Shown one piece after another: positions 2,160 to 28,797 of a stretch of DNA of 32,000 bases (position 1 is its first letter; each line of letters opens with the position of its first letter). This stretch comes from Candidatus Lokiarchaeum ossiferum (lineage in GTDB: Archaea; Asgardarchaeota; Lokiarchaeia; Sigyniarchaeales; Promethearchaeaceae): assembly GCA_025839675.1 (NCBI GenBank), contig CP104013.1, forward strand, positions 5,850,001 to 5,882,000, given 5' to 3'. A program made the translations under genes and the position numbers. The notes below the pieces were generated by a model. The model was not told where the DNA came from, made no database searches, and worked only from the letters and a program-made list of their open reading frames with translations.

Positions 2160-3131
2160 TTAAGGGTTAAGTGCTTTTTCCATCTCCATATCGTCTACCA
2201 ATAAACTTCGGAGAATTTCATAGATTTCGGTCGTTGAATGTTCGAAGAAATTAAATTGATCTATCACTACTTCTGGATCATGTTCTTCTAAGATTAATAG
2301 AATATAGAATTGCAATCCCTCAATATCAAAGGCTTGAATTAATCCCGAAATTTTGGTGAAAGCATCTAACCTATCACTAAATTCGTAGGAATTCATATTC
2401 TCGTCAACAATGCGACGTTGAGCTATTTCATATAATGTTAAGACTTTTTTACGCATATCTAAGGTGATATTTTCCATAAAATAACTTCCTAATTCGATCC
2501 CATTTTGCTCAAAGATCATTAGGGATATTACGTTTTCCATTTTACTGACCATATCAATAAGAAACTTCTGAATTGCCTCATTTTGAGAATACAGCAACTT
2601 TATTCCTTGGGAAAAGCCTTGAATAATAGTATGAATTTCAAAGATGTTGGTTTCAAAAAAGCGAATTTTGAATTTTTCCAACCATTGACGGACACGATGC
2701 TTCACAACGCCAACATTCTTACGTATTGTCGGATCTTGCTTCAATTTTGGATCCGTTTTATGAAGCATGATAACCACTGGCACATCCATATTACTTTCTT
2801 CAAAATATGCTAAGATTTTATCTAAATAACTTATTGATTCATCAAATCGTAAAGAATCCTGTATATCAACCACATAAAAGAGTAGGTCAATTCCACTCAA
2901 ATATCTAATCTTATGTTTAAGATATTCGTCAATATAATGTGCTTGACCGCCGAAATCATTCAGATAAATCAAATGGTCAAGGAATTGAAAAGATGAGCGA
3001 TCAATCTTCAAAGTTGGTTTTAAACCGCGTACAAAAGATGGTAAATCAAATTTTTGTTTCATACCTGTAATTATGCTAGTTTTTCCTGCGTTATCGAGCC
3101 CTAATATTGCCAATTTTTTATCTGATACCAT
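2160..3131 (-). CDS. Rag/Gtr-family GTPase with C-terminal roadblock-type domain
   Basis: G1 GLDNAGKTS, G2 KPTLK, G3 LNDFGGQ, G4 HKTD (His instead of Asn, as in RagA HKMD; nt 2751-2762). FFETNIFEIHTIIQGFSQ aligns with RagA FRTSIWDETLYKAWSS. It is followed by about 140 aa of alpha/beta domain (MIFEQNGIELGS vs RagA LLFERATFLVIS). I prefer the start at M11 (nt 3131), which has GGAG 8 nt upstream; the ORF extends to 3161. Confidence 0.8.
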   Translation of the reverse strand: MVSDKKLAILGLDNAGKTSIITGMKQKFDLPSFVRGLKPTLKIDRSSFQFLDHLIYLNDFGGQAHYIDEYLKHKIRYLSGIDLLFYVVDIQDSLRFDESISYLDKILAYFEESNMDVPVVIMLHKTDPKLKQDPTIRKNVGVVKHRVRQWLEKFKIRFFETNIFEIHTIIQGFSQGIKLLYSQNEAIQKFLIDMVSKMENVISLMIFEQNGIELGSYFMENITLDMRKKVLTLYEIAQRRIVDENMNSYEFSDRLDAFTKISGLIQAFDIEGLQFYILLILEEHDPEVVIDQFNFFEHSTTEIYEILRSLLVDDMEMEKALNP

Positions 3132-3196
3132 TTTAATTGCTCCAAATTCTAGATATTTCATAAAATACTTTTGTATTTATTTCTACAATCTATACT

Positions 3197-3250
3197 ATTC
3201 TTTTGGATTATTGGGTTTTTTATTCTTTTGGGTTATTGGGATTTTTTTTT
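3197..3250. repeat. Tandem direct repeat, 2 x about 25 bp, in a divergent intergenic region
   Basis: ATTCTTTTGGATTATTGGGTTTTTT (3197-3221) is immediately followed by ATTCTTTTGGGTTATTGGGATTTTTTTTT (3222-3250). It lies between the Rag-like gene (-) and pyrF (+). Confidence 0.85.
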
Positions 3251-3287
3251 AAGCTTGTTGTTTTATGTGTTTTGGAGTCAAAAAAAA

Positions 3288-4277
3288 ATGAGTTGTGAAT
3301 TATTTGCTGATCGGTTAGTTGACCAAATTAAAAAGAAACAGTCCATTATTTGTGTTGGCTTGGATCCACGTATCGGAGAAAAATCCACCATCCCACAAAG
3401 TGTTTTAGATAAAGTAGGTCATGATAATAATGAAGCAATATGGGAATTTAATAAGGGAATTATTGATCATACCCATGAAATAACCCCAATCTATAAACCT
3501 CAAATTGCTTTTTATGAACAATATGATGCTATGGATGCCCTAAAGAGAACAATTGATTATATTCATGAAAAAGGCGCTTTGGCGTTATTGGATGCAAAGC
3601 GTAATGATATAGGTTCTACCTCTGGGGCTTATGCCAAGGCTGTCTTTGAGCACTTAGGGGCCGATGCGGTCACAGTAAATAGTTATTTTGGAATTGATGG
3701 CGTTGCTCCCTTTTTGAAATATATCCCTGCAGGAAAAGGGGTGATCATGCTGTTGAAGACTTCCAATAAATCAAGCGGAGAATTCCAAGATTTATTCTCT
3801 GTAGGGCTCAATGAAATTGGACCAGAAACAATAGAAACCACTGTTGATAAGACTACGCTTGCTCGCAATTATATTCACATGACCCGATTAATGGTAAAAT
3901 GGAGTGAAGATTCATCAATTGTTGGAGAAGGAAATGAATCCGGAAAGAGTGGATATTCAAGTTTAGGTGGTGTGGTAGGCGCAACCTATCCCGCACAGAT
4001 GAAGGCAGTAAGAAAAGAAGCTCCGCTTAATTTTATTTTAATTCCTGGGTATGGTGCTCAAGGTGGTACGGCTGCAGATATTCTTCACGGACTCAACGCT
4101 GATGGGTTGGGGGCGATTGTGAATGCTTCACGTTCCATTAATTTTGCCTATCAAGCTTCTCAATACAAAGATCTTTTCTCTCCCGAACAATTTGGGGAAG
4201 CGGCCGGTCAAGCTGCAAAGGATATGCAACACGCCATAAACCAAGTCTTGAAGACTGCTGGAAAAATTGCATATTAA
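3288..4277 (+). CDS. pyrF: Orotidine 5'-phosphate decarboxylase, type 2
   Basis: IICVGLDPR, LDAKRNDIGST and PGYGAQGG motifs, about 330 aa. Start placed at the ATG at 3288. The upstream 39 codons of the ORF are just a translation of the T-rich repeat. Confidence 0.85.
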   Translation: MSCELFADRLVDQIKKKQSIICVGLDPRIGEKSTIPQSVLDKVGHDNNEAIWEFNKGIIDHTHEITPIYKPQIAFYEQYDAMDALKRTIDYIHEKGALALLDAKRNDIGSTSGAYAKAVFEHLGADAVTVNSYFGIDGVAPFLKYIPAGKGVIMLLKTSNKSSGEFQDLFSVGLNEIGPETIETTVDKTTLARNYIHMTRLMVKWSEDSSIVGEGNESGKSGYSSLGGVVGATYPAQMKAVRKEAPLNFILIPGYGAQGGTAADILHGLNADGLGAIVNASRSINFAYQASQYKDLFSPEQFGEAAGQAAKDMQHAINQVLKTAGKIAY

Positions 4278-4297: not shown

Positions 4298-6133
4298 TCA
4301 AATTTTGGAAATTTCCATAACCATCCTCTCAGAAGTGCTATTTAATTCTTCCGCTCCTGCAGCGAGTTCTTCTAATGTTGCAGCCATTTCTTCTGCAGAT
4401 GAAGATAAATTTTCAGTAACACTTTGATTACTCTCAATAATTTTATTCATTTTATTTGTTTGAATCAAGGTTTGTTCCAATAATGTATCTTCCTTTTGGA
4501 TTTGATTTAAATTAGCTTGTATTGCTTGATCTGTTTGATTTATAATATCAAAGAGATTTTCTAATTTTAACTTGGTTTTTGAAATTGCTTGTCTTCCATT
4601 TTCTACAGAAGAATATGATTGTTCTGTATTTTCAATAGCAATATTGATTTCATCATGAATTTCATGAATTAACTCTCCAATTTGAGTAGCAGCAGTTTTT
4701 GAATCTTCAGCAAGTTTTCTTACTTGATCTGCTACAACTGCAAAACCTTTCCCTGCATCACCTGCACGAGCAGCCTCAATTGCCGCATTTAGAGCAAGTA
4801 AATTTGTTTCATTAGATATGCTTGCAATAATATCAATAATTTTTGTAATTTCTTCACTTTTTTTCCCCAACCTTTCCATTACAGCTTGAATTTTCCTGGT
4901 ATCATCCATAATTAGTGCGATATTTTCTGAAATTTCGATACTTAGATTATTTCCTGTTTTTGCCATTTCTTTTCCATTTTTAGATAAAGATGTAATATCA
5001 TTTTCTCTTGAAACAATATTTGCACTAATTTTTTTTATTCCTTCAAGCATTTTTGAGATGCTATGAATATCATTTGTCTGGTTTTGTGCACCTTTAGCGA
5101 CTATCTGAGAACCTTGGGAGACTTCCTGAATGGAGATATTTATTTGATTTGCTGAGATTGTAAATTGATCTGACATGGATGAGAGATCTTGAGCTATTTT
5201 TTGCACTTGTTTAACTAGTAGAATTGTTTGGGTGATATCCATGATAGTGACAAGATATCCTTGTTCAGTTTGGTTGTCTGAATTGGTTTGTTTGATACTG
5301 AGATAACCAATTTTTTTTTTTGTGTTTTTTGTTTTTAATTCAAATTGGAAATCTTGCAGTTCTCCTTCGTATTTCAACTTTGAAATCATTTCTGCATAAT
5401 CTTCACTATTCGTACAGATTTCATGGAATTTTTTGCCTAAGTAATCTTTTTTATCGAATCCCGAGAGATATTTTATAGAATCGCTGATATCTACTATGAT
5501 CAGATTGTTATCCAGAATTACAATCGGCGCTGTTGTGCTGTCAATTATTTCTCTAATAGAATTTTGCTGTGATTGAATTTTTCCTGCCATATCTTTAATA
5601 TTTCGTGCAAGTTCTCCTATTTCTTCCTTTCGGCTGAATATTGCAGAATCAATTTCATAATTAAAAAGGTTTTGGCCAATCGCGCTTGTGTAATCTCTAA
5701 TATCTAGTAATGGCGTTCTGATGTTTGACACAGTAAAGATCAAAAAAAGTACTATTAATCCTGCACCTAAGGTAACCCCTAAAATTATTACATCAAGACG
5801 ATAATCAAAAAGACTCATTATTAAGACTACATAAATCCCAAATACAATCATTGTAGCTATAGGTACCGATAATTTTCGAAAAAGACTTTGCTTGAAAAAA
5901 ATAAAGAAACTCGAGATAACTAAAATCGCAACGATCAGTACAATTTGCCCCATTGTTGGTGCATCAAGTTGGCTGTTTAACCAGGATGTATTATTAGTTC
6001 TTCGAATGTTGACAAATATTAGCAAAAGAAGAGCGGTGAAAGAGATTAAAAAAAAAGCGATGATCAATAATAGTTTACGGAGTTCTTTTATGGTTCTCCG
6101 TTGAGAAGGTTGGATTGTCATTTTTTTTCCCAA
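4298..6133 (-). CDS. Methyl-accepting chemotaxis protein (4 predicted TM helices, HAMP, PAS, MA signalling domain)
   Basis: Highly conserved hairpin tip [37 protein letters not shown]. Four hydrophobic segments in the first ~135 aa, then a HAMP-like [17 protein letters not shown] and a PAS-like segment [36 protein letters not shown]. Confidence 0.9.
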
Positions 6134-6592
6134 ATAGATTTTTTATGTTCGTAATCATCTCTAACATAAATGTCCTTTCTTTTAGAAAAATTACAATGTT
6201 ATAGTAGTCTATTTATCGAAATAGTCGAATATGAAAAGAAATCAATATAGAAGTTTATATTTTAGTTGTAATCTAATTGAGGTTTAAGAGATGAAGGATC
6301 TTTTTTTTTTTTTTGGATTTGATCATAAATCTTATTTTTCCTTAGCAGATTCTTGCAGATCATTTTAGAATTGTATAAATATCTTTAGATATAACAAAAG
6401 AAAGGATTATTCACAAAACTTAGATAGTCATTTTGAGGGTAGCCGCCAGAAATGTCTATTTGGTGATGATTTTATTATGGTTGATAAAATAGCAGATATC
6501 GAATCATCAAATGCAGCGATGAAAAAGGGTGATATTGATGAAATACTTCTTCCTTAATTTCAAATGCAATTGAAAGGGGAAATCAGTCCTTT

Positions 6593-6793
6593 ATGGGAAA
6601 AATCTTTAGTTTAGTGATGAAACAAAGTAAGGATATTGTTGATGAAAGTATAGAGCATCTTGACTTAGAAGAAATGGCTAAGAAATATTCCGTAGAATTG
6701 CCAAAAAATTTCCTTGATGGGTTATCCAAGAAATCTTTGGTGGAAGAAAGGGTTTTTAGTTCCTCAACAAACGAAAGGGCTTTTGTATGTTAA
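6593..6793 (+). CDS. Hypothetical small protein (66 aa)
   Basis: ORF only; its stop overlaps the start of the next ORF (ATGTTAA). No recognisable motif. Confidence 0.25.
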   Translation: MGKIFSLVMKQSKDIVDESIEHLDLEEMAKKYSVELPKNFLDGLSKKSLVEERVFSSSTNERAFVC

Positions 6794-7053
6794 CAATGTT
6801 TCTCAAAATGTGTTTTTTAAGAAAAAAGTTGAAGGAAAATGAGGTTATGAAAGCCATGTTAGCCAATATGAATACAAATAATATCACCAATTCGATAAAG
6901 GAAAGAATCATGGATAGCGATTTAGTGAAAAAATTGATTGCTATGGTATCTGCTCCATTGTTGGCATATCTTAGCCAAATAACCCAAGATCGTTCCCTTT
7001 TGAATAATTGGTATAGTAATATTGCTCAATTTTTCCAAGGATTTGGAATTTAG
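6787..7053 (+). CDS. Hypothetical small protein (88 aa; may start at an internal Met)
   Basis: ORF followed 2 nt later by a T12 run, which supports a real + strand transcript end. No recognisable motif. Confidence 0.3.
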   Translation: MLTMFLKMCFLRKKLKENEVMKAMLANMNTNNITNSIKERIMDSDLVKKLIAMVSAPLLAYLSQITQDRSLLNNWYSNIAQFFQGFGI

Positions 7054-7055
7054 TG

Positions 7056-7084
7056 TTTTTTTTTTTTCATTTTTTATAAAAAAA
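7056..7084. terminator. Bidirectional terminator candidate between convergent genes
   Basis: T12 (7056-7067) serves the + strand. TTTTTATAAAAAAA (7071-7084) gives a T7 on the - strand, downstream of the 7122 stop. Confidence 0.5.
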
Positions 7085-7121
7085 TGTTGGAGTGCATAAT
7101 TTACTTCTTTTCTTAAATTGA

Positions 7122-8087
7122 TTACAAGTGATCAAGAGTTATTACTACACTTCCTACTTTATGACCCTTTTCTGCATAAGCATGAGCATCTGCAACCTTT
7201 TCTAATGGATAAACTTTATCAATGATTATCTGCAATTTATTAGACTCCACTAAATCTTTTAGAAGAGTTAAATTTTCACCCGCTTCTGCAATTCCAGTTA
7301 TTACCTTTTTCTTCCCTAGTTTTGAGGTCCATAACATTTGAATAAACAATTTAAACGAAGGAATAATATTCAAATAAATTCCATTTTTTGTCATTAATTT
7401 TCTACATTTTGAGAACGAACTTTTTCCAACTATATCAAATATGAGATCATATTTTTGGTTCTTTTCCTTAGTAAAATCTGCTTTTGTATAATCAATTACT
7501 CTTTTCGCTCCAAGAGATCGTACTAAATCCACATTCTTAGAACTACATACTCCTGTGACTTCCGCTCCAAATTGGTTCGCTAATTGAACTGCAAAAACTC
7601 CCACACCACCTGATGCCCCATTAATGAGTATTCTTTGTCCACGCTGAATATTTGCGATTCTTTTTAGAAAATGAATTGCTGAAATAAATCCAAAATAAAC
7701 AGACGCTCCCTGCTCAAAGCTCATGGAGTCAGGCATCAATTCCAGCTTATTTTTTTCTGTTGCGATAAAATACTCCGCGTATACATTTTCACCCGTTCCA
7801 AATACTTTATCACCAATTTTAAATTTTTTAACAGCATTTCCTATTTCAACGACCTCACCACTTACTTCGGTTCCCAGAATTTTCTGTTTTGGTTTCCAGA
7901 ATCCTATCAATATTTTTGAAATAGGCCACAATGGTACTTTTCCACTCCTTACCCGATAATCCATCGGAGTGACTGAAGTGGCATGTACTTTGATGAGGAT
8001 TTCATTTTCCTTTATAATTGGTTTTTCAATTTCTTCTAATTTTAGAACCTCTGGTGCACCATATTTTGTCCGGACAATTGCTTTCAA
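7122..8087 (-). CDS. NAD(P)H-dependent oxidoreductase, medium-chain dehydrogenase/reductase (quinone oxidoreductase / Zn-ADH-like) family
   Basis: GroES-like N-terminal domain and a Rossmann motif INGASGGVGVFAVQLA, about 320 aa. TTG start forms a 4-nt overlap (TTGA) with the upstream gene's stop. Confidence 0.85.
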   Translation of the reverse strand: MKAIVRTKYGAPEVLKLEEIEKPIIKENEILIKVHATSVTPMDYRVRSGKVPLWPISKILIGFWKPKQKILGTEVSGEVVEIGNAVKKFKIGDKVFGTGENVYAEYFIATEKNKLELMPDSMSFEQGASVYFGFISAIHFLKRIANIQRGQRILINGASGGVGVFAVQLANQFGAEVTGVCSSKNVDLVRSLGAKRVIDYTKADFTKEKNQKYDLIFDIVGKSSFSKCRKLMTKNGIYLNIIPSFKLFIQMLWTSKLGKKKVITGIAEAGENLTLLKDLVESNKLQIIIDKVYPLEKVADAHAYAEKGHKVGSVVITLDHL

Positions 8088-8551
8088 GCTTCATTTCCCT
8101 CCTTAATCGATTGATCATCAATATATTTTTCCAATAAACTGGCAGCATCAACAACATACTTTTTACAATTTATAAAAATGGCTTCTTGGTCTGCTTGTTT
8201 TAAATTTCCAACATCGGTCAAATCATGCCCTACTAATTCACGGCAGATGATTGATCCATTAATTTTTTTGAATTCTTCTAAAAATTGAGATGAATACTTG
8301 GTCACATCTTGCATATTTCCATTAAATTTGAGCCCTAATGACATTAAGGCCCCTGAGATTGCACCACAAACGTTTCCTGTAAGATTAATCCCCCCTCCAA
8401 ATGCAGAGGTAATTTTCATACAATCTTCAAAATCCAGTTTTTCCTTAGCTAGAAAAGGGCCATATGTTGCAAAAATCGCTTGGGCACAATTTCCTTGACG
8501 GTTTCCCATAAAATCTTTTGCTGATTTTATTAATTCTGATTTATTTTCCAT
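8084..8551 (-). CDS. C_GCAxxG_C_C family putative redox-active protein
   Basis: GNCAQAIFATYG, FGGGI...GNVCGAISGALMSLG and the later CRELV / NCKKYV cysteines match the family pattern. Translationally coupled to the MDR oxidoreductase. Confidence 0.75.
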   Translation of the reverse strand: MENKSELIKSAKDFMGNRQGNCAQAIFATYGPFLAKEKLDFEDCMKITSAFGGGINLTGNVCGAISGALMSLGLKFNGNMQDVTKYSSQFLEEFKKINGSIICRELVGHDLTDVGNLKQADQEAIFINCKKYVVDAASLLEKYIDDQSIKEGNEA

Positions 8552-8574
8552 ATTTTTTCACATTTTTTTTTGTT

Positions 8575-8612
8575 TCTCTTTCTCATATCTCTTTCTCATA
8601 TCTCTTTCTCAT
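8575..8612. repeat. 13-bp tandem repeat, 3 copies (TCTCTTTCTCATA)
   Basis: Copies at 8575-8587 and 8588-8600 are exact; 8601-8612 has 12 of 13 nt. The array spans the stop codon of the 8596..9348 gene and lies about 25-60 nt upstream of the 8551 start codon. Confidence 0.9.
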
Positions 8613-9348
8613 CTTTATATCTTTCATACTCCATAATTTTATCTAAACCAATTAAAGTCCCAACTTTCTCCAAATTTTTAGCAAAATCTTTACAAAAAAA
8701 AGCAAAGTGTCCAGCTATAATGACAAATTCATGGATATCGATTTTTGATTTATAAAGGAGAGGATATTTATCCTTAATCCATGAAAAAAGCTTGAAGTAA
8801 TACTCTTCTAATAGTAATACACTTTCATCTACTAGTTTGTCAATTGTTTCAGAATCGATTTCTGGATTCAAGTCTTTTGCCATTTGTTTCATTGGATTAA
8901 AAATATCTTGCATAATTGAATCGGTTAGAATATTATCTAACTGCTCAGTGATAACTATTGCAGTTCGACCATAATATGCGATGTAATGTCTTCCTTCCAG
9001 AATTTTTACAATCTCTTTTAAATATCCATCTTCTACTAAAGATTTAATATGAAAATGAAAATTTGAAAGTGAATATTGTTGACTATTTTGTTTTTTCAAA
9101 TAAGCAGTATGAAGTTCTTTTGCTGTGAATGCATGTCTACGAGAAAGTTGAAATTTCTTTCCAAATTCATCTTCCAATCCATCACGAATATATTTAATTA
9201 TAAAGCTTTGAACTTCTGATTTCTGAACTTGAGAATATTTTGAAGATTCAATTGTTTTGAAATATTTTAGCTTATGCCAATAAGTGTACAATAATTTCCT
9301 CTTTTTTTCGCTTTCAATATCTTGGGAAGTCATAATAAAAAACACCAT
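8596..9348 (-). CDS. Hypothetical protein with probable ArsR-like winged-helix domain
   Basis: FTAKELHTAYLKKQNSQQYSLSNFHFHIKSLVEDGYLKEIVKILEGRHYIAYYGRTA looks like helix-turn-helix plus a beta wing; the C-terminal half is helical. The start may be M6 (nt 9333). Confidence 0.45.
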   Translation of the reverse strand: MVFFIMTSQDIESEKKRKLLYTYWHKLKYFKTIESSKYSQVQKSEVQSFIIKYIRDGLEDEFGKKFQLSRRHAFTAKELHTAYLKKQNSQQYSLSNFHFHIKSLVEDGYLKEIVKILEGRHYIAYYGRTAIVITEQLDNILTDSIMQDIFNPMKQMAKDLNPEIDSETIDKLVDESVLLLEEYYFKLFSWIKDKYPLLYKSKIDIHEFVIIAGHFAFFCKDFAKNLEKVGTLIGLDKIMEYERYKDEKEI

Positions 9349-9390
9349 TTAGTAAAGACTGAATGATACGATTTAGTAATAACTAAATGG
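9345..9390. promoter_or_regulatory. Three copies of the ATTTAGT core (two direct, one inverted) at and upstream of the wHTH gene start
   Basis: ATTTAGTAA occurs at 9347-9355 and 9371-9379. Inverted copy ACTAAAT at 9382-9388. CCATTTAGT (9345-9353) and ACTAAATGG (9382-9390) form a 9-bp inverted repeat. Confidence 0.3.
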
Positions 9391-9572
9391 TTATATCTTT
9401 TAAAGATTCTCATTTTAATTCTTTATAACTTGATCAAAAAAATTTTATTAAGGTTACTTAATCACTCGATGGAGCAGAATTCGGGGATAATTTAAAGCTT
9501 CGAAAGGTACCTGCAAATTAATAGATTGTTTTAATTTGGAAGTATTAAATTTGTTGCTTCACTTGAATGATC

Positions 9573-10121
9573 TCAAAGTTCATACCGATCAATTTCTAAC
9601 AATGTTTGATTATGATCAAGAAATTCAATTTCCGTGATATCCTTTGAGATTCCGGTAATCCACCCTTCCATCCGGTACTCCCACAAACAAGTACAATATT
9701 CGTCAAGATCTTTCGGTTTTGGGATCATTGAGAAATTTAGTTGGATTTTAGATGGCATTCGCCTAATACTAAAATGAAAATCTGCTTCCTCGGGCAAATA
9801 TTTTTGAAAACAGATAAATTGAAAGTATAATATCTCACCCTCTAAAACAAAATTATAAGGTGCCCGAGTTTCTGCTGATAGATCTACACCAAGAGCAATT
9901 TGTGTTGTATTCATGAATGATTCTGACAAATCGAAATTGGGTAAAGATTCAATATGGGCTTGAAGGGGTATATCAAAATAGGGATAATAGTCTCCTAATT
10001 CTTTTTTTTTTTGAGAAGGAGGATAGAATGCGAGAAAATAAACAAGTATAGAGGTTGAACAAACTAGAGCTATTCCGATAATGCCCATCGTTTTTCTTTT
10101 TTGGGTACTCGATATCGACAT
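9573..10121 (-). CDS. Hypothetical membrane-anchored protein (single N-terminal TM helix, extracytoplasmic domain)
   Basis: N-terminal KRKTMGIIGIALVCSTSILVYFLAFY hydrophobic anchor. The remaining ~140 aa have no motif I recognise. Confidence 0.5.
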   Translation of the reverse strand: MSISSTQKRKTMGIIGIALVCSTSILVYFLAFYPPSQKKKELGDYYPYFDIPLQAHIESLPNFDLSESFMNTTQIALGVDLSAETRAPYNFVLEGEILYFQFICFQKYLPEEADFHFSIRRMPSKIQLNFSMIPKPKDLDEYCTCLWEYRMEGWITGISKDITEIEFLDHNQTLLEIDRYEL

Positions 10122-10230: not shown

Positions 10231-10791
10231 TTAACTACAAATTGCAGTCCAAAATTGAGTGCGACCAACTTTTTGAGTACGAATAACTGCATTGGCTTCT
10301 TCTAATTGGCTCATTACTCGCCAAATTTCCGAATTACTGAGTTTGAAATATCTTCGCAGTTCTGGAGTGCTAATTTCCTGCCCGTTAAGTAAGTTTATGA
10401 CAATTCGTTTAATCTCCTCGTAATCTGTGCCTTCTACTTCCGTTTCAGTATCTTGTTCTTCTTCAGTATTATCCATTTGTTGAACCAGCTCGTTTGCAAT
10501 CTGTCCCAATCGTTCCAACTTAGTATTTAAGTTTTCTGGGCGCATGAACAAACAACACAGTTCTAATCCACGGGAAAAAGCCACGATATAAAAATTATTA
10601 TAGAGAATCGCTAAAGGTTGTAGTCCTTCATCGCCCCCCCTGAAGCTCAGATAGAAATTCATTAGAAAAGATTCCATATCAATATTAAATTCACAATCTT
10701 CAAATTGTCGGAACCATTTTATCCCAGGTCCTTCAATCATGTCAAAACCAATCATCGCTGCTGCAATTATTTCACTTTCATCAAATTTCAT
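10231..10791 (-). CDS. Roadblock/longin-like domain protein fused to a C-terminal winged helix-turn-helix
   Basis: An N-terminal ~105-aa alpha/beta domain (IIAAAMIGFDMIEG...LAILYNNFYIVAFSRGLELCCLFMRPEN...LERLGQIANELVQQM), an acidic linker (DNTEEEQDTETEVEGTDYEE), then a wHTH (STPELRRYFKLSNSEIWRVMSQLEEANAVIRTQKVGRTQFW). The ATG directly abuts the upstream GTPase stop (TAAATG). Confidence 0.5.
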   Translation of the reverse strand: MKFDESEIIAAAMIGFDMIEGPGIKWFRQFEDCEFNIDMESFLMNFYLSFRGGDEGLQPLAILYNNFYIVAFSRGLELCCLFMRPENLNTKLERLGQIANELVQQMDNTEEEQDTETEVEGTDYEEIKRIVINLLNGQEISTPELRRYFKLSNSEIWRVMSQLEEANAVIRTQKVGRTQFWTAICS

Positions 10792-11358
10792 TTAATTATC
10801 TCCTCGTTTTCGAGCATCTACATAATTCATGAGTGTATTTATTAATTCGACAATCCGTTGTCGATTATTTTTATCAATGGCCACCATCGGGAAGGTAGGA
10901 ATTTGTAACACATCTTCAACCCGTTCAGGGGACATATGTCCTTGTAAGTCTTGTTTATTCGCTAAGGCGACGAGTTCACAACTTTCGTCAACCAAAGTTT
11001 TGGAATGTTCCAATAATTCTTTCGTTGTGAGAACATTTTTTGGTGTGGAGTCGGTGACAACAAATATAATATCACTTCCGTGCACATATTTGCTCAAATG
11101 TTGTTTAAGATATGCTTTTTGGCCTCCAAAATCCCAGAGACGAACATTTAATCCATCCAAATTTGTAGCTCCTAAATTAAAACCCATGGTAGGATTGTAT
11201 TTTCCTGAGATCAATTGTCCCCGCATGAGTTTGGTTAAAGTGGTTTTTCCTACCGCAGGTGTTCCAATAATGGAAATTTTTGCAGCAGGAGCTTGTTGCG
11301 ATGGTTTAAATGTAGAATTTTTAATAAAGGATTTAAATGTTGATTGCATGGTCATCAC
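10792..11358 (-). CDS. Arf/Arl-like small GTPase
   Basis: G1 GTPAVGKTT, G2 PTMGFN (Arf PTIGFN), G3 WDFGGQ (Arf WDVGGQ), G4 NKQD. The interswitch and IIFVVTDS are colinear with Arf1. It has a 25-aa N-terminal extension containing TFKSFIKNSTF. Confidence 0.85.
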   Translation of the reverse strand: MMTMQSTFKSFIKNSTFKPSQQAPAAKISIIGTPAVGKTTLTKLMRGQLISGKYNPTMGFNLGATNLDGLNVRLWDFGGQKAYLKQHLSKYVHGSDIIFVVTDSTPKNVLTTKELLEHSKTLVDESCELVALANKQDLQGHMSPERVEDVLQIPTFPMVAIDKNNRQRIVELINTLMNYVDARKRGDN

Positions 11359-21656: not shown

Positions 21657-23948
21657 ATGTCTCGCCGCGTAAAAATGACTGCTGATATTTTAAGACTGAT
21701 GGAAAATCCGCAACAAGTAAGAAACATAGGACTCATTGGACATATAGATCATGGTAAAACCACTCTTTCTGATTCACTTTTAGCGGAAGCCGGTTTACTC
21801 GCCAAATCTCTTGCTGGGGAAGCACGAGTATTGGACTATTTAGAAGAAGAACAGAGGCGAGGAATTACGATGAAATCGGCAAACATCTCTTTAGTCTATG
21901 AACACAGCTTATCTTCAGTAGATCCTTTTTTGATTAATCTTGTAGATACTCCTGGACATTTAGATTTCTCGGGAAAAGTAACTCGAGCCCTTAGAATTGC
22001 TGATGGAGTTGTGGTTATTGTAGACAGTGTGGAAGAAGTTAGTTCGCAAACTGAAACCGTTGTACGACAAGCTCTTCAAGAAGGTCTACGTCCCTTATTA
22101 TTCATAAATAAAATTGATCGCTTATTCAAAGAGTTGAAGTTGGATAGTGATGAAATAAAGAACAAGTTTTCAAGGATCATACAAGATTTTAATAAACTAA
22201 TTTATATGTACGGTGATGCTCTCGCCAAAGATCTTTGGCTCGTGTCGGCTGAAAAAGGGTCGGTGTTATTTGGTTCTGCATTACACAAATGGGGGTTTGT
22301 AATTCCTCAGTTAGTCCAAAATAAACATAATTTTGATTATTTTCAACACGCTTATGATAATGATACTTATCGAGCTCTTCCAAATCAATATCCTGTGTGG
22401 AAATCGGTGCTTGCGGCTGTAGTGCAATTCTTACCCAATCCTGTTGAAGCCCAAAAATACAGAATAAAAACAATTTGGAGTGGGGATTGTGGTACAGATG
22501 TTGGAAAAGCGTTATTAAATTGCGATCCAAAAGGTCCTCTAGTCATAGGGCTAAGCAAGGTACAAAAACTTAAGAATCGCTTGATTGGAACTGGTCGAAT
22601 TTTTTCGGGAACTCTAAAGAGAGGTCAAAGCGTATGGCTAGTGAATGGAAAAGAAAAATCATCGATAAATCAATTAAGTATATTTATGGGTTCTAGGTTA
22701 GAGAGTGTTTCTGAAGTTCCAGCCGGAAATATTGCAGCCATCGGTGGCATTAAAAAAATCCGGAGTGGAGAAACATTATTTGGAGTAAAGGCGAAAGAAG
22801 ATGCGAAACCTTTTGAGACAGTGAAATATGTCAGCGAACCTGTAGTTACTGTAGCAATTGAGCCCGATATGTTAAAAAATCTTAATCAATTACAAGAGAT
22901 TCTTGAGGAAATACAAGTTGAAGATCCTAATATTTCTGTGGAAATCAGTTCGGATTCTGGGGAGTGCCTTTTATCTGGAATGGGTCCTTTACATTTAGAA
23001 ATTGTAGCAAATACCATAAAAGAGCGTGGGGTTGAGGTGGAAGTTTCAAAACCGACCAGTGTTTTTCATGAATCTATCGAAAATATAAGTTCCTATCATG
23101 ACGCAACGAGTCCTAATGGGTTAAACAGTATTCGTATGTTAGTTATGAGGATGGATACTCCAACGGTCGCTTATTTACGGGGAGTTAAATCTCAAATTAT
23201 TGAAAATGATATATTGCGGGAACAAGAATTACCTCAACATACTAGTTTTAGTGTTTATGAATCTCGAGGGTTTTGGAATGTGGATAAATTTCAAAATGTA
23301 ATTATCTCCCGTTTGAAAGAAGATACTGGAATTGAGTATGATGACGAAGATAATGAAGTTTTAGAAAGTAAAACTAAGACATCAAAGAAGAAAAGTCGAA
23401 AAGGTAAATCTAAAAATGATCCTGAAGATAATCGACAAGTTCCCTTGGATATGCGAGGTCAAATAATGGAATCTATACATGGTATTTTATCTCATGGTGT
23501 AATTGCTCAGGAACCGATTTCAGAAGTAAAAATTGTAATTAAAGAAGTCAATTTAGCTAAAAATAGAGAAGATGCGAATTTCTTTGAAATTTCTACTATG
23601 ATTCAGGATGCTTTTATGGCATGCTTGCGAGAAGCACAACCTGTTTTATTGGAGCCCATTTATACTCTGATGATCGCTACTCCTGAAGAGTATATTGGCA
23701 CTGTCACTTCTCTTGTAAATCAGTTTCAAGGAAAAATTTTAGAAATAACTCAGGATGCCTTCAAATCTCATGTAACTGCTAAGATGTCCGTCCGTCAATC
23801 TATCGATTTTGCTCAAGAAATTCGAGGTCAAACGAGTGGCAGAGTATTTTGGCAAAATCTATTTGATAAGTATTCTCCCGTACCTGAACATGAACGTGAA
23901 TCAATCATTCAAGATATTAAATTTAGAAAAGGTTTAGCTTTTTTCTAA
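21657..23948 (+). CDS. Elongation factor 2 family GTPase, divergent paralog (EF-2p-like)
   Basis: Colinear with archaeal EF-2 from the N-terminus (MSRRVKM...VRNIGLIGHIDHGKTTLSDSLL) to the C-terminus (KFRKGL). G3 DTPGH, G4 NKID, YVSEPVVTVAIEP, GMGPLHLEIV. Both domain IV tip loops are diverged and there is a charged insertion (see findings). GAGGT lies upstream of the ATG. Confidence 0.85.
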   Translation: MSRRVKMTADILRLMENPQQVRNIGLIGHIDHGKTTLSDSLLAEAGLLAKSLAGEARVLDYLEEEQRRGITMKSANISLVYEHSLSSVDPFLINLVDTPGHLDFSGKVTRALRIADGVVVIVDSVEEVSSQTETVVRQALQEGLRPLLFINKIDRLFKELKLDSDEIKNKFSRIIQDFNKLIYMYGDALAKDLWLVSAEKGSVLFGSALHKWGFVIPQLVQNKHNFDYFQHAYDNDTYRALPNQYPVWKSVLAAVVQFLPNPVEAQKYRIKTIWSGDCGTDVGKALLNCDPKGPLVIGLSKVQKLKNRLIGTGRIFSGTLKRGQSVWLVNGKEKSSINQLSIFMGSRLESVSEVPAGNIAAIGGIKKIRSGETLFGVKAKEDAKPFETVKYVSEPVVTVAIEPDMLKNLNQLQEILEEIQVEDPNISVEISSDSGECLLSGMGPLHLEIVANTIKERGVEVEVSKPTSVFHESIENISSYHDATSPNGLNSIRMLVMRMDTPTVAYLRGVKSQIIENDILREQELPQHTSFSVYESRGFWNVDKFQNVIISRLKEDTGIEYDDEDNEVLESKTKTSKKKSRKGKSKNDPEDNRQVPLDMRGQIMESIHGILSHGVIAQEPISEVKIVIKEVNLAKNREDANFFEISTMIQDAFMACLREAQPVLLEPIYTLMIATPEEYIGTVTSLVNQFQGKILEITQDAFKSHVTAKMSVRQSIDFAQEIRGQTSGRVFWQNLFDKYSPVPEHERESIIQDIKFRKGLAFF

Positions 23949-23973: not shown

Positions 23974-24915
23974 TTATCTTAAAATACGATATTTTTTTTG
24001 AATACGCAATCGTTCAGTTAGGCTTGCGATTATGGGATCATCTCGTTCTTTTTCAGCTTCCAATATCCGTCTTTCTTCGTAGTTTCCCTCATGGAGCAAA
24101 CGATCAATTTGTCTTTTGGGCATTTTGAAGTCCAATTTGCAATAACTATGGGCAAGTTCTGCAGGTGATTTTTCATAATAAATTAGTAATTTTTCTATGT
24201 TTCCCATTTGTTCCCGATTGCTATAGAAATTATTTAATAGATTTTGTCCATAAACCGCCAATTGAAGATGTTTATAGTTTTCTTCTATGGAATTGAGAAT
24301 TGCCATGACATTTTCTTTGGTAATTCCATACAGACTTCGTATTGGATTTTGGTTTAATTTAATAAATGTGTCTGGATTCAGCTTCTTTGGGATTCCTTTT
24401 AAACTAGATAAATTGTTATGATCTAACTGAAGTTCAACTAATTGATCTGGATATTTTGGTAGATCTTCTAATAAATCTAAGTTGTTCGAATTTAGAAATA
24501 AGTGTTTTAATTTCGGGCAGTGTGCAGGAAAATAATCCGTTGATCTTAAGGCATTAAATGAGATATCAATAGATTCTACGTTTGGTAATCTTGGGGATAT
24601 TCCTTTGAGTGTTCTTAATCGATTCTGTTTAAGGTTGAGTTCAATTAATTTTGGCATTTCAGATGGAAATCCTTGTAAATCTGTCAATAAATTTCGAGCA
24701 AAATAGAATCCTTGTAAATTTGGTAGGTATTCTGGTAACCCCTGGAGTGACGTAAATCCTTCTTGCTCCTTTTTTGATCTATATCGTTGAGATCCTTCAA
24801 ATTCTTTTAAGAAAGGCATTTTTTTTGGAAAACCTTTAAAATTTTGGAAGTTGCTTGAACCTAAGTGGATTTCAACTGTTTTCTCATTAAAACTTTGGTG
24901 AGTTTGGTTTTCCAT
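23974..24915 (-). CDS. Leucine-rich repeat protein
   Basis: About 7 repeats of ~22 aa of the form L.G.P..LP.L..L.L..N.L..L (LQGLPEYLPNLQGFYFARNLLTDLQGFPSEMPKLIELNLKQNRLRTLKGI...). Helical C-terminal region. Confidence 0.8.
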   Translation of the reverse strand: MENQTHQSFNEKTVEIHLGSSNFQNFKGFPKKMPFLKEFEGSQRYRSKKEQEGFTSLQGLPEYLPNLQGFYFARNLLTDLQGFPSEMPKLIELNLKQNRLRTLKGISPRLPNVESIDISFNALRSTDYFPAHCPKLKHLFLNSNNLDLLEDLPKYPDQLVELQLDHNNLSSLKGIPKKLNPDTFIKLNQNPIRSLYGITKENVMAILNSIEENYKHLQLAVYGQNLLNNFYSNREQMGNIEKLLIYYEKSPAELAHSYCKLDFKMPKRQIDRLLHEGNYEERRILEAEKERDDPIIASLTERLRIQKKYRILR

Positions 24916-27213: not shown

Positions 27214-28797
27214 ATGGAACTTGTTGAAATGGATACAGAATTAGTCCAAGAATTCATTTCATTGTTTGAAAATGCAAACAATATTAACATTTCCACAATC
27301 ATTCAGAACCTTGGGATAAGTAGAAGTGAATTATTTGATTCATTAGTTTCATGGAGTGATTATTTTGATTTTTCAATTGAAGATGATCGAGTTTATGTAA
27401 AGAATTTATCATCTCTTATTCAAGCAAAGGAAAATGTTCTGAATAACTCAGTAAAAAATGCGTTACCGATTCATGAAATCTTTGAAGGTGCTCTTCTATA
27501 CCAAAATGTACCCCTTTATTCCAAAGAAACTCAATTCTTACAAATATTAGAACAATTAATTCAGACTCCTATCCTAGAATCAAGTCAAAATAATTTCTTG
27601 AATGGTTTTTATGCAGAAGGTGGTCATATCCTAAAGTTAGGGTTAAATCATCAATTTCTATCCCAATTACCAGAAAGTATCTCTGATCTTCAATATTTAA
27701 CTGAATTAAAGCTTGACAATCTCCAACTGAAGTTTCTTCCCGATTCTTTGGTCCATTTGTCCCACTTAACTCATCTTTCATTAACGAATAATTTTCTAAG
27801 AAGCCTTCCCAAAAATTTTGGGGATTTAACACAGCTTTCCAGTCTTTTATTAGATGATAATAATCTGGAATCTTTACCTTACTCCTTGATTCACTGCTCA
27901 AGTTTAAAAAATCTTTCTATCACTCGAAATAATATAAATCTTAAGGAATCTTTTGAAATTCTGCGAAAATTGAAACAAGATGGGTGTTTAATTGATCAGA
28001 AACAAGCTTTTAGATGGTCCGAAGTGGGTTATGAAGGTATTATTTGTAATTCCGGGTTAAAGCAAGATGATTTTGTAAATACAATTTTTCATCTTGATTC
28101 GATGCTTTCTTTTGAAGAACTTTGTGCTCAAATGGTTCTAGTGGAAAAAGAAGATAAGAGATTTGTAAAACCCGATGATTTCGATAGGTGGGACATTAAA
28201 GAACGTTCAATTGTTAAAAATATGGTTGATCCTGATGAAGATTATAGTTGGGCTCTATTCTATAATGATATTCCTCTTGTTAAGGATGAATATGACATTA
28301 TGAAATATCTTGAAGAATTGCTTGGTCTGCCCATTCCACCTGTTTCTTCAGTAGAGATGAAATTTGGATTTATTGCTGAAGAAGGACACGTTGTTGAATT
28401 AGGTCTTTATTATCTGAATTTAATCACCGTCCCTGAAGCTATAGTCTTATTGACCTCACTAAGGCATTTATTTTTGGGAAATAATCGTTTTTCATCAATT
28501 CCCTACTGGATTGGATGTCTAACTTCTTTGGAAATCTTAAATTTCCAACAAAATCACATTTTTTCAATACCAGATCTTTTTAGCAGTTTGACCAAACTAA
28601 CAAAATTGGATTTAAGTCATAACAGAATCCTCTCTCTTCCCAAATCTATGGAAAAACTAACCAATTTGAGATATTTGAACATTGAAGACAATCAATTAAA
28701 TTTAACAAAAAGTAAGGAAGCCCTTCAGAAAATTAAGCATAATGGGTGTTCAATTGATAGTATTAAGGCATTTAGAATGCGGGAAATAAGGAAATAA
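27214..28797 (+). CDS. Leucine-rich repeat protein with N-terminal wHTH-like domain and two tandem copies of a leader + LRR + cap module
   Basis: LRRs such as LPESISDLQYLTELKLDNLQLKFLPDSLVHLSHLTHLSLTNNFLRSLPKNFGDLTQLSSLLLDDNNLESLP, plus a second block VPEAIVLLTSLRHLFLGNNRFSSIPYWIGCLTSLEILNFQQNHIFSIPDLFSSLTKLTKLDLSHNRILSLP. Confidence 0.8.
   Translation: MELVEMDTELVQEFISLFENANNINISTIIQNLGISRSELFDSLVSWSDYFDFSIEDDRVYVKNLSSLIQAKENVLNNSVKNALPIHEIFEGALLYQNVPLYSKETQFLQILEQLIQTPILESSQNNFLNGFYAEGGHILKLGLNHQFLSQLPESISDLQYLTELKLDNLQLKFLPDSLVHLSHLTHLSLTNNFLRSLPKNFGDLTQLSSLLLDDNNLESLPYSLIHCSSLKNLSITRNNINLKESFEILRKLKQDGCLIDQKQAFRWSEVGYEGIICNSGLKQDDFVNTIFHLDSMLSFEELCAQMVLVEKEDKRFVKPDDFDRWDIKERSIVKNMVDPDEDYSWALFYNDIPLVKDEYDIMKYLEELLGLPIPPVSSVEMKFGFIAEEGHVVELGLYYLNLITVPEAIVLLTSLRHLFLGNNRFSSIPYWIGCLTSLEILNFQQNHIFSIPDLFSSLTKLTKLDLSHNRILSLPKSMEKLTNLRYLNIEDNQLNLTKSKEALQKIKHNGCSIDSIKAFRMREIRK

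Follow-up and report, generated by a model that had tools for sequence, protein, structure and literature searches.

The nutrient sensing of eukaryotes is anchored by Rag GTPases, and their relatives in Asgard archaea are used to reconstruct the origin of such machinery ('eukaryotic signature' systems). In eukaryotes Rags are obligate heterodimers of RagA/B and RagC/D, which dock on Ragulator/EGO and signal to the target of rapamycin complex 1 (TORC1). We wanted to know whether one gene of Candidatus Lokiarchaeum ossiferum encodes a protein of this family and in which oligomeric state such a protein may work. The gene, referred to as the Rag-like gene, lies on the minus strand at 2160..3131 of the window, that is, of the whole 32,000-nucleotide stretch that was analyzed (contig CP104013.1, positions 5,850,001 to 5,882,000). 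An earlier note made from the letters of this stretch (the sequence-only reading) described the product as a Rag/Gtr-like GTPase with a fused roadblock domain and, as a single gene of this kind was noticed, suggested an ancestral-type homodimer. We found that the gene very probably encodes a two-domain small GTPase of the Rag/Gtr family, orthologous to WP_147663476.1 of Promethearchaeum syntrophicum MK-D1, a protein of the GTPase-roadblock ('GR') type. The conclusion about the homodimer was not supported.

Assignment to the Rag/Gtr family

We compared the protein encoded by the Rag-like gene with families of known proteins. The Pfam family Gtr1_RagA (PF04670) matched it with 79 bits (E 4.7e-22, cutoff 22), 24 bits ahead of the Pfam family Arf, which was also above its own cutoff (55 bits). 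The match to PF04670 was shared by all 35 aligned homologs, and 109 full-length homologs were found. With this E value and these homologs, a chance resemblance can be dismissed. The search of NCBIfam gave only a sub-threshold match to TIGR00231. Further, a family profile was compared with the PDB. The highest scores were obtained for two proteins of Lokiarchaeota, LokiRagO (8YL2, 259 bits) and LokiRagM (8ZLA, 177 bits), and for human RagA (113 bits), followed by S. pombe Gtr1 (106 bits), Arl3 (82 bits, G domain only) and RagC (75 bits). The match to human RagA covered profile positions 4-286 and RagA residues 6-281, and therefore both domains.

We also modelled the protein with AlphaFold2 (AF2), using the alignment of 35 sequences and a single chain; such a monomer-only run cannot show a dimer. 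The model reached a predicted local distance difference test score (pLDDT) of 83 and a predicted template modelling score (pTM) of 0.81, and only switch I (residues 30-44) and the last nine residues were weak. As the sequence-only reading had proposed, the fold was compared with RagA and Gtr1 structures, in a Foldseek search of the PDB. Ranks 1-38 were occupied exclusively by chains of LokiRag, Rag or Gtr proteins, with alignments of approximately 300 columns, which means that the C-terminal domain was included. LokiRagO (8YL2) took ranks 1-3 (E 4.5e-20) and LokiRagM ranks 4 and 9 (8ZLA and 9M28), while the remaining places up to rank 38 were filled by RagA, RagC, Gtr1 and Gtr2. Arf and Arl chains appeared from about rank 39 and were aligned over the G domain only. 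The E values for RagA/Gtr1 chains ranged from 1e-16 to 1e-12, and in these alignments of structures about 17-20% of the residues were identical. Pfam, the family profile and the fold comparison thus agree with the Rag/Gtr identity given by the sequence-only reading, and no profile placed the protein firmly in an Arf/Sar or MglA clade. The likeness to RagA/B and Gtr1 consists of the HKxD motif, the TSI-type G5 with its following helix, the long switch II, the roadblock domain and the lack of a lipid anchor.

Motifs of the G domain

The G domain comprises residues 1-180 (2592..3131, minus strand, as all features of this gene); the Pfam Gtr1_RagA match covers residues 6-209, and the AF2 model shows the Ras-like alternation of strands and helices in this domain. 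Motifs were checked by translation of the exact coordinates, and invariance was read from the alignment of 35 family members. The G1 motif or P-loop, GLDNAGKT, lies at 3078..3101; its residues G11, G16 and K17 were invariant, and the motif as such is Arf/Arl-like. In switch I, Pro39 and Thr40 (3012..3017) were both invariant. Thr40 is the presumed ligand of Mg2+ and the gamma-phosphate, as in small GTPases generally. The G3 motif DFGGQ (2943..2957), with which switch II starts, aligned with DCGGQ of RagA and places Gln63 in the catalytic position; G61 and G62 were invariant, and D59 and Q63 nearly so. Judging by the gaps in the alignment, switch II exceeds that of Arl3 by 4 residues and has the length found in Rag proteins. 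A switch II insert has also been described for GTPases of the GR, not the RG, architecture (Tran et al. 2024, PMC10933270).

The G4 motif is HKTD (2751..2762) and not NKxD. In the family-profile alignment it was placed on HKMD of RagA, so both the position and the Rag-type character that it had been given earlier were correct; K125 and D127 were invariant and H124 nearly invariant. The G5 region and the following helix, FFETNIFEIHTIIQGFSQ (2607..2660), aligned to RagA FRTSIWDETLYKAWSS. This bears out the parallel between the two helices that had been drawn from the letters, as 'FRTSIWD-ETLYKAWSS' of RagA stands opposite the post-G5 helix when the family profile is aligned. The family consensus for this part is FFxTSIYD...AFS, S174 was invariant, and the position of Asn162 was taken by T, N or S among the orthologs.

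The C-terminal roadblock domain

Residues 181-312 (2196..2591) form the second domain, which we assigned as a roadblock domain on the basis of the AF2 model (pLDDT about 87-94 in this part), Foldseek and the profile alignment. The predicted elements were helix 183-196, strands 201-208 and 213-218, helix 224-243, strands 248-254, 260-270 and 273-282, and helix 286-311. Residues 183-311 thus follow the order helix-strand-strand-helix-strand-strand-strand-helix, which is the order of the roadblock fold. The family-profile alignment runs through both domains to RagA residue 281. The roadblock domain had been postulated from its place in the protein, and the predicted fold supports it; the model did not give a non-roadblock fold.

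We also compared conservation of the two domains among 33 orthologs. The roadblock domain was no less conserved than the G domain (0.67 vs 0.60). Within the roadblock domain, the highest values were observed for strands 3-5 (0.77) and helix 2 (0.70), and helices 1 and 3 reached 0.53-0.57.

Extent of the reading frame

The open reading frame on the minus strand extends over 2160..3161 and corresponds to 333 amino acids, as an ATG at 3161 allows this longer form, which is also the version recorded by automatic gene callers. An internal start at MVSDKK gives 2160-3131, that is 323 amino acids and a stop codon. The additional N-terminal residues were not common to the orthologs: homologs were 323-325 amino acids long, and the longest open reading frames at the MK-D1 locus and at another orthologous locus (L001) had 323 amino acids and started from MVSDKK. 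A GGAG sequence is located 11-14 nucleotides upstream of this start. An exact-sequence look-up of the 323-residue form returned no match, while the 333-residue form is on record. The coordinates 2160-3131 of the sequence-only reading match the MVSDKK start used by all orthologs, and we retained them for the coding sequence.

In translation, the protein begins with MVSDKK, directly followed by strand 1, and ends with ...EKALNP without a cysteine. There are 5 residues before strand 1. We found no lipid-modification motif, no Gly2 and no N-terminal amphipathic helix.

Comparison with Arf, Arl, Sar and MglA GTPases

Several results speak against the Rag/Gtr assignment. When the single sequence was compared with the PDB by phmmer, the best matches were 8YL2 (E 1.8e-28) and 8ZLA/9M28 (1.8e-24), both titled 'GTP-binding protein', and the next were Arl3 (2.5e-8) and then RagA (3.6e-7) and Gtr1. 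RagA is thus no closer than Arl3 over the G domain, and the evidence for the assignment comes from profiles, from the C-terminal domain and from the fold. A Pfam search of the C-terminal domain alone gave no match even at E up to 10, and the roadblock fold of this domain is an AF2 prediction. Moreover, the locus offers no operonic partner; the neighbors on the two sides are pyrF, in divergent orientation, and LigT, in convergent orientation.

An alternative would be a GTPase of the Arf/Arl/Sar or MglA type with an unrelated C-terminal appendage, which would resemble Rag only superficially. Proteins of the Arf/Arl/Sar group are single domains of about 180 amino acids with an N-terminal amphipathic helix, often a myristoylated Gly2, and the NKxD motif. 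The G-domain core of the Rag-like protein is related to this group, including the Asgard AArfs (PMC11914678), and public annotations of homologs read 'ADP-ribosylation factor-like' or 'SAR1 family', in line with the Pfam Arf match and with the slight lead of Arl3 over RagA for the single sequence. Nevertheless, the protein has 323 residues with a second domain, HKTD in place of NKxD, the longer switch II and no N-terminal extension that could carry an amphipathic helix, and we rejected the Arf/Arl/Sar identity for these reasons. The lead of Gtr1_RagA over Arf and the continuation of the RagA/Gtr1 profile and fold matches through the C-terminal domain also oppose it, and an independent study found Asgard 'Arfl' proteins of such a type close to Rag and not within the Arf clade (PMC11914678). 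The MglA/MglB-type identity was rejected as well: there was no MglA chain among the top 60 PDB sequence matches or the top 50 fold matches, and the MglA-like GTPases of MK-D1 form a separate group (Tran et al. 2024, PMC10933270). We consider the alternative of an Arf- or MglA-type GTPase hardly credible.

Relatives in Asgard archaea

Having assigned the protein to the Rag/Gtr family, we looked for its relatives. A scan of species-representative genomes identified nine orthologous loci at 61-84% identity, among them those of MK-D1 (NZ_CP042905.2), three Promethearchaeum metagenome-assembled genomes (MAGs) and Ca. Harpocratesius repetitus. The MK-D1 ortholog WP_147663476.1 is 72% identical over all 323 residues and has equal length, architecture and local gene order. 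It comes from another species, and a block of approximately 6 kb that is present at the window locus is missing at the MK-D1 locus. By sequence we matched it to WP_147663476.1-GR, which is printed beside RRAGA_HUMAN in the supplement of Tran et al. 2024 (PMC10933270). In the supplementary alignment of the same study, 11 GTPases of MK-D1 carry a roadblock domain at the C-terminus; among them WP_147663357.1 is, by sequence, LokiRagO and WP_147662243.1 is LokiRagM.

LokiRagO and LokiRagM are the closest solved structures, 31% and 33% identical to the Rag-like protein, respectively. LokiRagO (8YL2, 'Homo Tetrameric RagA-like small GTPase from Asgard Lokiarchaeota', GTP-bound) is the best PDB match both by sequence and by fold, and shares the G and roadblock domains, HKxD and the Rag-length switch II. 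It differs in having an N-terminal extension ('XGR'; the chain match starts at residue 42), which the Rag-like protein lacks, as well as in belonging to a separate clade, in being a tetramer and in a global template modelling (TM) score of only 0.50 to our model. LokiRagM (8ZLA/9M28, a monomeric Rag-like protein of Lokiarchaeota) has the same two domains and gave the best global superposition (TM 0.64-0.66), but carries a C-terminal extension of approximately 75 residues ('GRX'; the match ends at 307 of 385) that is not present in the Rag-like protein.

In a rough neighbor-joining tree the Rag-like protein belonged to a clade of its own, apart from LokiRagO and LokiRagM. A sister clade at approximately 40% identity comprised 71 loci of Loki-, Thor-, Hod-, Hermod- and Odinarchaeota. 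Among 1.84 billion cluster representatives, 953 related clusters reached E 1e-3, and 26 clusters reached 1e-30; N-terminal extensions occurred in many.

Downstream of the Rag-like gene, at about 7 kb, the window genome has a tandem pair of genes for membrane Hexapep-repeat proteins (L081 18334-19901, beyond the left edge of the window). The same pair was observed (e.g. L002 11195-12819) near the Rag-like gene of MK-D1 and Harpocratesius and, in the sister clade, about 5 kb upstream of it. This shared pair is a hint of orthology between the two clades, with an ancestral neighborhood that was rearranged.

The sequence-only reading had stated that Rag-like GTPases were already reported in Asgard archaea, which is the case: the family is catalogued (PMC10933270), two Loki paralogs are solved, and the Rag-like protein is a further member. 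It reveals no new kind of system. What the gene adds is a well-defined and widely conserved subfamily consisting of a plain G domain and roadblock domain, which differs from both Loki paralogs of known structure. Since its architecture is plain, the subfamily distinct and an ortholog available in the cultured MK-D1, we regard it as a reasonable target for the question whether a simple roadblock dimer preceded the RagA/RagC heterodimer.

Oligomeric state

The ancestral homodimer had been deduced from the presence of one Rag-like gene. However, its single occurrence applies to these 32 kb only, and with 11 GTPase-roadblock paralogs in MK-D1, the closest cultured relative, the argument from a single gene fails at the level of the genome. 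Further, LokiRagO (8YL2) is a homotetramer and LokiRagM (8ZLA and 9M28) a monomer, oligomeric states that we took from the PDB titles alone, and neither of these solved paralogs is a dimer. In global superposition of the AF2 model TM was 0.64-0.66 for LokiRagM vs 0.47-0.50 for the others, Rag and Gtr included, so the model is nearest to the monomer.

An obligate homodimer formed by the roadblock domains, representing the state before the duplication that led to the RagA/RagC heterodimer, can nevertheless be argued for on other grounds. The protein has the plain GR architecture, without the N-terminal extension of LokiRagO or the C-terminal one of LokiRagM. Neither the window nor any of the nine orthologous loci has a second Rag-like gene next to it. 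The canonical dimer face of roadblock proteins, formed by helix 2 and strand 3, falls within the part of the C-terminal domain that is conserved best, although conservation of the strands may merely reflect the core of the fold, which is usually conserved anyway. In addition, AF2 predicted dimers with typical roadblock/longin interfaces for all but one of the modelled MK-D1 combinations (Tran et al., PMC10933270). Weighed together with the paralogs and the conformation of the model, these points leave the homodimer as a tentative proposal, which we hold with less than even confidence.

The superposition itself suggests a monomeric switch of the LokiRagM type, in which the roadblock domain would pack on its own G domain and act as an intramolecular module for regulation or partner binding. 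The model was superposed best on 8ZLA and 9M28 (TMq 0.66 and 0.64, respectively, root-mean-square deviation 5.4-5.7 Å, approximately 335 columns), whereas the dimeric and tetrameric Rag chains aligned at 13-14 Å, and the pTM value suggests a defined arrangement of the two domains. Yet the identity to LokiRagM is only 33%, the two proteins belong to different clades, the additional C-terminal segment of LokiRagM is absent, and a run with one chain could not have produced a dimer in any case. We think a monomer rather unlikely.

The coexistence of multiple GR paralogs in MK-D1 also brings in an asymmetric heterodimer in the style of Rag, in which the partner would be a GTPase-roadblock paralog encoded elsewhere in the genome. 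A precedent among these paralogs is the operonic MK-D1 pair WP_147663117.1 and WP_147663118.1, two adjacent genes for which a Gtr1-Gtr2-like heterodimer was predicted, while one of the homodimers of this pair was not (PMC10933270). Set against this, a paralog was adjacent to the Rag-like gene in none of the 10 genomes examined, and we find such a heterodimer unlikely.

Possible function and mechanism

All nucleotide-binding elements of the Rag-like protein are intact, namely the P-loop, Thr40, DFGGQ with Gln63, HKTD and the Rag-length switch II, and from these motifs we would expect cycling between GTP and GDP. There is no intrinsic arginine in switch I, as in other roadblock-containing GTPases of MK-D1, and an external GTPase-activating protein (GAP) is thus probably needed. 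The absence of this arginine, implying GAP dependence, was noted for the MK-D1 proteins (PMC10933270). The roadblock domain may serve as an assembly surface. Its face of helix 2 and strand 3 would mediate dimerisation with itself or with a paralog, and a partner would bind to the helical face on the other side.

No TOR is known from archaea, and neither is any other of the partners of eukaryotic Rags. Without TOR the Rag-like protein cannot act as eukaryotic Rags do. By analogy with what has been proposed for Asgard small GTPases generally, it would most likely mark or regulate a membrane or scaffold site.

Gene neighborhood

The Rag-like gene is separated from pyrF by an AT-rich divergent intergenic region (3132..3287), which presumably contains the putative promoters of both genes. 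pyrF itself was placed at 3288-4277 on the plus strand by gene callers and Pfam (329 amino acids). Its mechanical open reading frame starts at a TTG at 3171, which adds a hydrophobic leader of 38 residues. With the start of pyrF at approximately 3288, the intergenic region measures about 126-156 bp and is very AT-rich.

The order of divergent pyrF, Rag-like gene and convergent LigT was the same in 9/9 orthologous loci. We rejected a function deduced from this adjacency, as the genes lie on opposite strands, and no loci other than these nine, from close relatives, showed the arrangement. At one locus of the sister clade (L010), LigT was also found beside the Rag-like gene, there on the same strand. 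The gene arrangement of the window was identical on three independent Logan assemblies of the window genome.

Beyond pyrF, at a distance of 1-3 kb, 8 of the 9 orthologous loci carry an Arf-like GTPase gene together with a gene for a 186-residue protein. The window has the same pair at 10231-11358, with a block of approximately 6 kb (4298-10121) between the pair and pyrF. This block contains a methyl-accepting chemotaxis protein (MCP) with PAS and HAMP domains (4298-6133), a zinc-type alcohol dehydrogenase, a C_GCAxxG_C_C protein and two unknown open reading frames (8596-9348 and 9573-10121). It was absent from the orthologous loci of the relatives (compared with L001-L009), including those of MK-D1 and Harpocratesius, and looks like a lineage-specific insertion.

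A HEAT-repeat protein of the PBS-lyase type is encoded on the plus strand at 766-1524, two genes from the Rag-like gene. Sub-threshold matches to Adaptin_N and mTOR_dom (E 0.001 for the latter) were obtained for this protein. Harpocratesius and two MAGs keep it at this position. We rejected a role as TOR- or Raptor-like partner, since we judge the matches to be generic HEAT similarity of an ordinary protein of the PBS-lyase type, and MK-D1 lacks it at this position.

Arf-like GTPase and the 186-residue protein

The sequence-only reading had advised looking for LAMTOR-like roadblock proteins. No match to a roadblock or longin Pfam family was found among the proteins of the window. The Arf-like gene (10792..11358, minus strand) encodes a small GTPase of the Arf/Arl type (Pfam Arf 3e-17; best PDB matches Arl3 and Arl2), which lacks a roadblock domain and is not of the Rag-like kind. 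The gene is joined without a gap by that of the 186-residue protein (10231..10791, minus strand). This protein belongs to no Pfam family, and 357 homologs in Asgard archaea (Loki, Thor, Hod and Odin) share at least 50% identity with it. Its AF2 model (pLDDT 73) consists of an N-terminal strand-strand-helix-strand-strand-helix domain and a C-terminal winged helix. The Foldseek matches of the N-terminal domain were weak (E 1e-3 to 1e-2) but coherent and included LAMTOR2-5, Roadblock2 of MK-D1 and zeta-COP/sigma-adaptin. The C-terminal domain gave equally weak matches (E 1e-3 to 1e-2) to ArsR/HlyU repressors. On this weak fold match, the roadblock/longin-like 186-residue protein is the only LAMTOR-like candidate in the window, and it is coupled to the Arf-like GTPase.

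Most simply, the 186-residue protein is the cognate partner of the Arf-like GTPase, and the two could form a widespread GTPase-regulator or GTPase-to-DNA module. A link of either of them to the Rag-like protein is speculative. It is also conceivable that the plain GR clade is the closest archaeal counterpart of RagA/Gtr1, with roadblock dimers docking on the syntenic 186-residue protein as a primordial Rag-Ragulator-like module, whose output would be transcriptional or metabolic and not TOR. The context for such a module is the divergent pyrF at the window locus and the ThiS/ThiI sulfur-relay genes beside the sister clade. We consider this possibility very improbable.

Other genes at the loci

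In the sister clade (L011-L080), a 93-residue ubiquitin-like protein of the ThiS family, ending with GG, directly precedes the Rag-like gene in 66 of the 80 fetched loci (e.g. L017 5563-5844), and a ThiI/THUMP protein is found just upstream of the ThiS-family gene in 26 loci. The wider cluster (e.g. L012 1820-8730) includes two Hexapep proteins, a metallophosphoesterase of 530 amino acids, S25e and a methyltransferase. In eukaryotes tRNA thiolation and TOR signalling are linked, which makes the presence of Urm1-like, sulfur-relay genes beside a Rag-like GTPase intriguing.

In the remaining part of the window we observed an EF-2/EF-G family translation GTPase (21657-23948) and two leucine-rich-repeat proteins, at 23974-24915 on the minus strand and at 27214-28797 on the plus strand. 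The latter are of a type common among 'eukaryote-like' proteins of Asgard archaea, and their genes flank UPF0047 and unknown genes.

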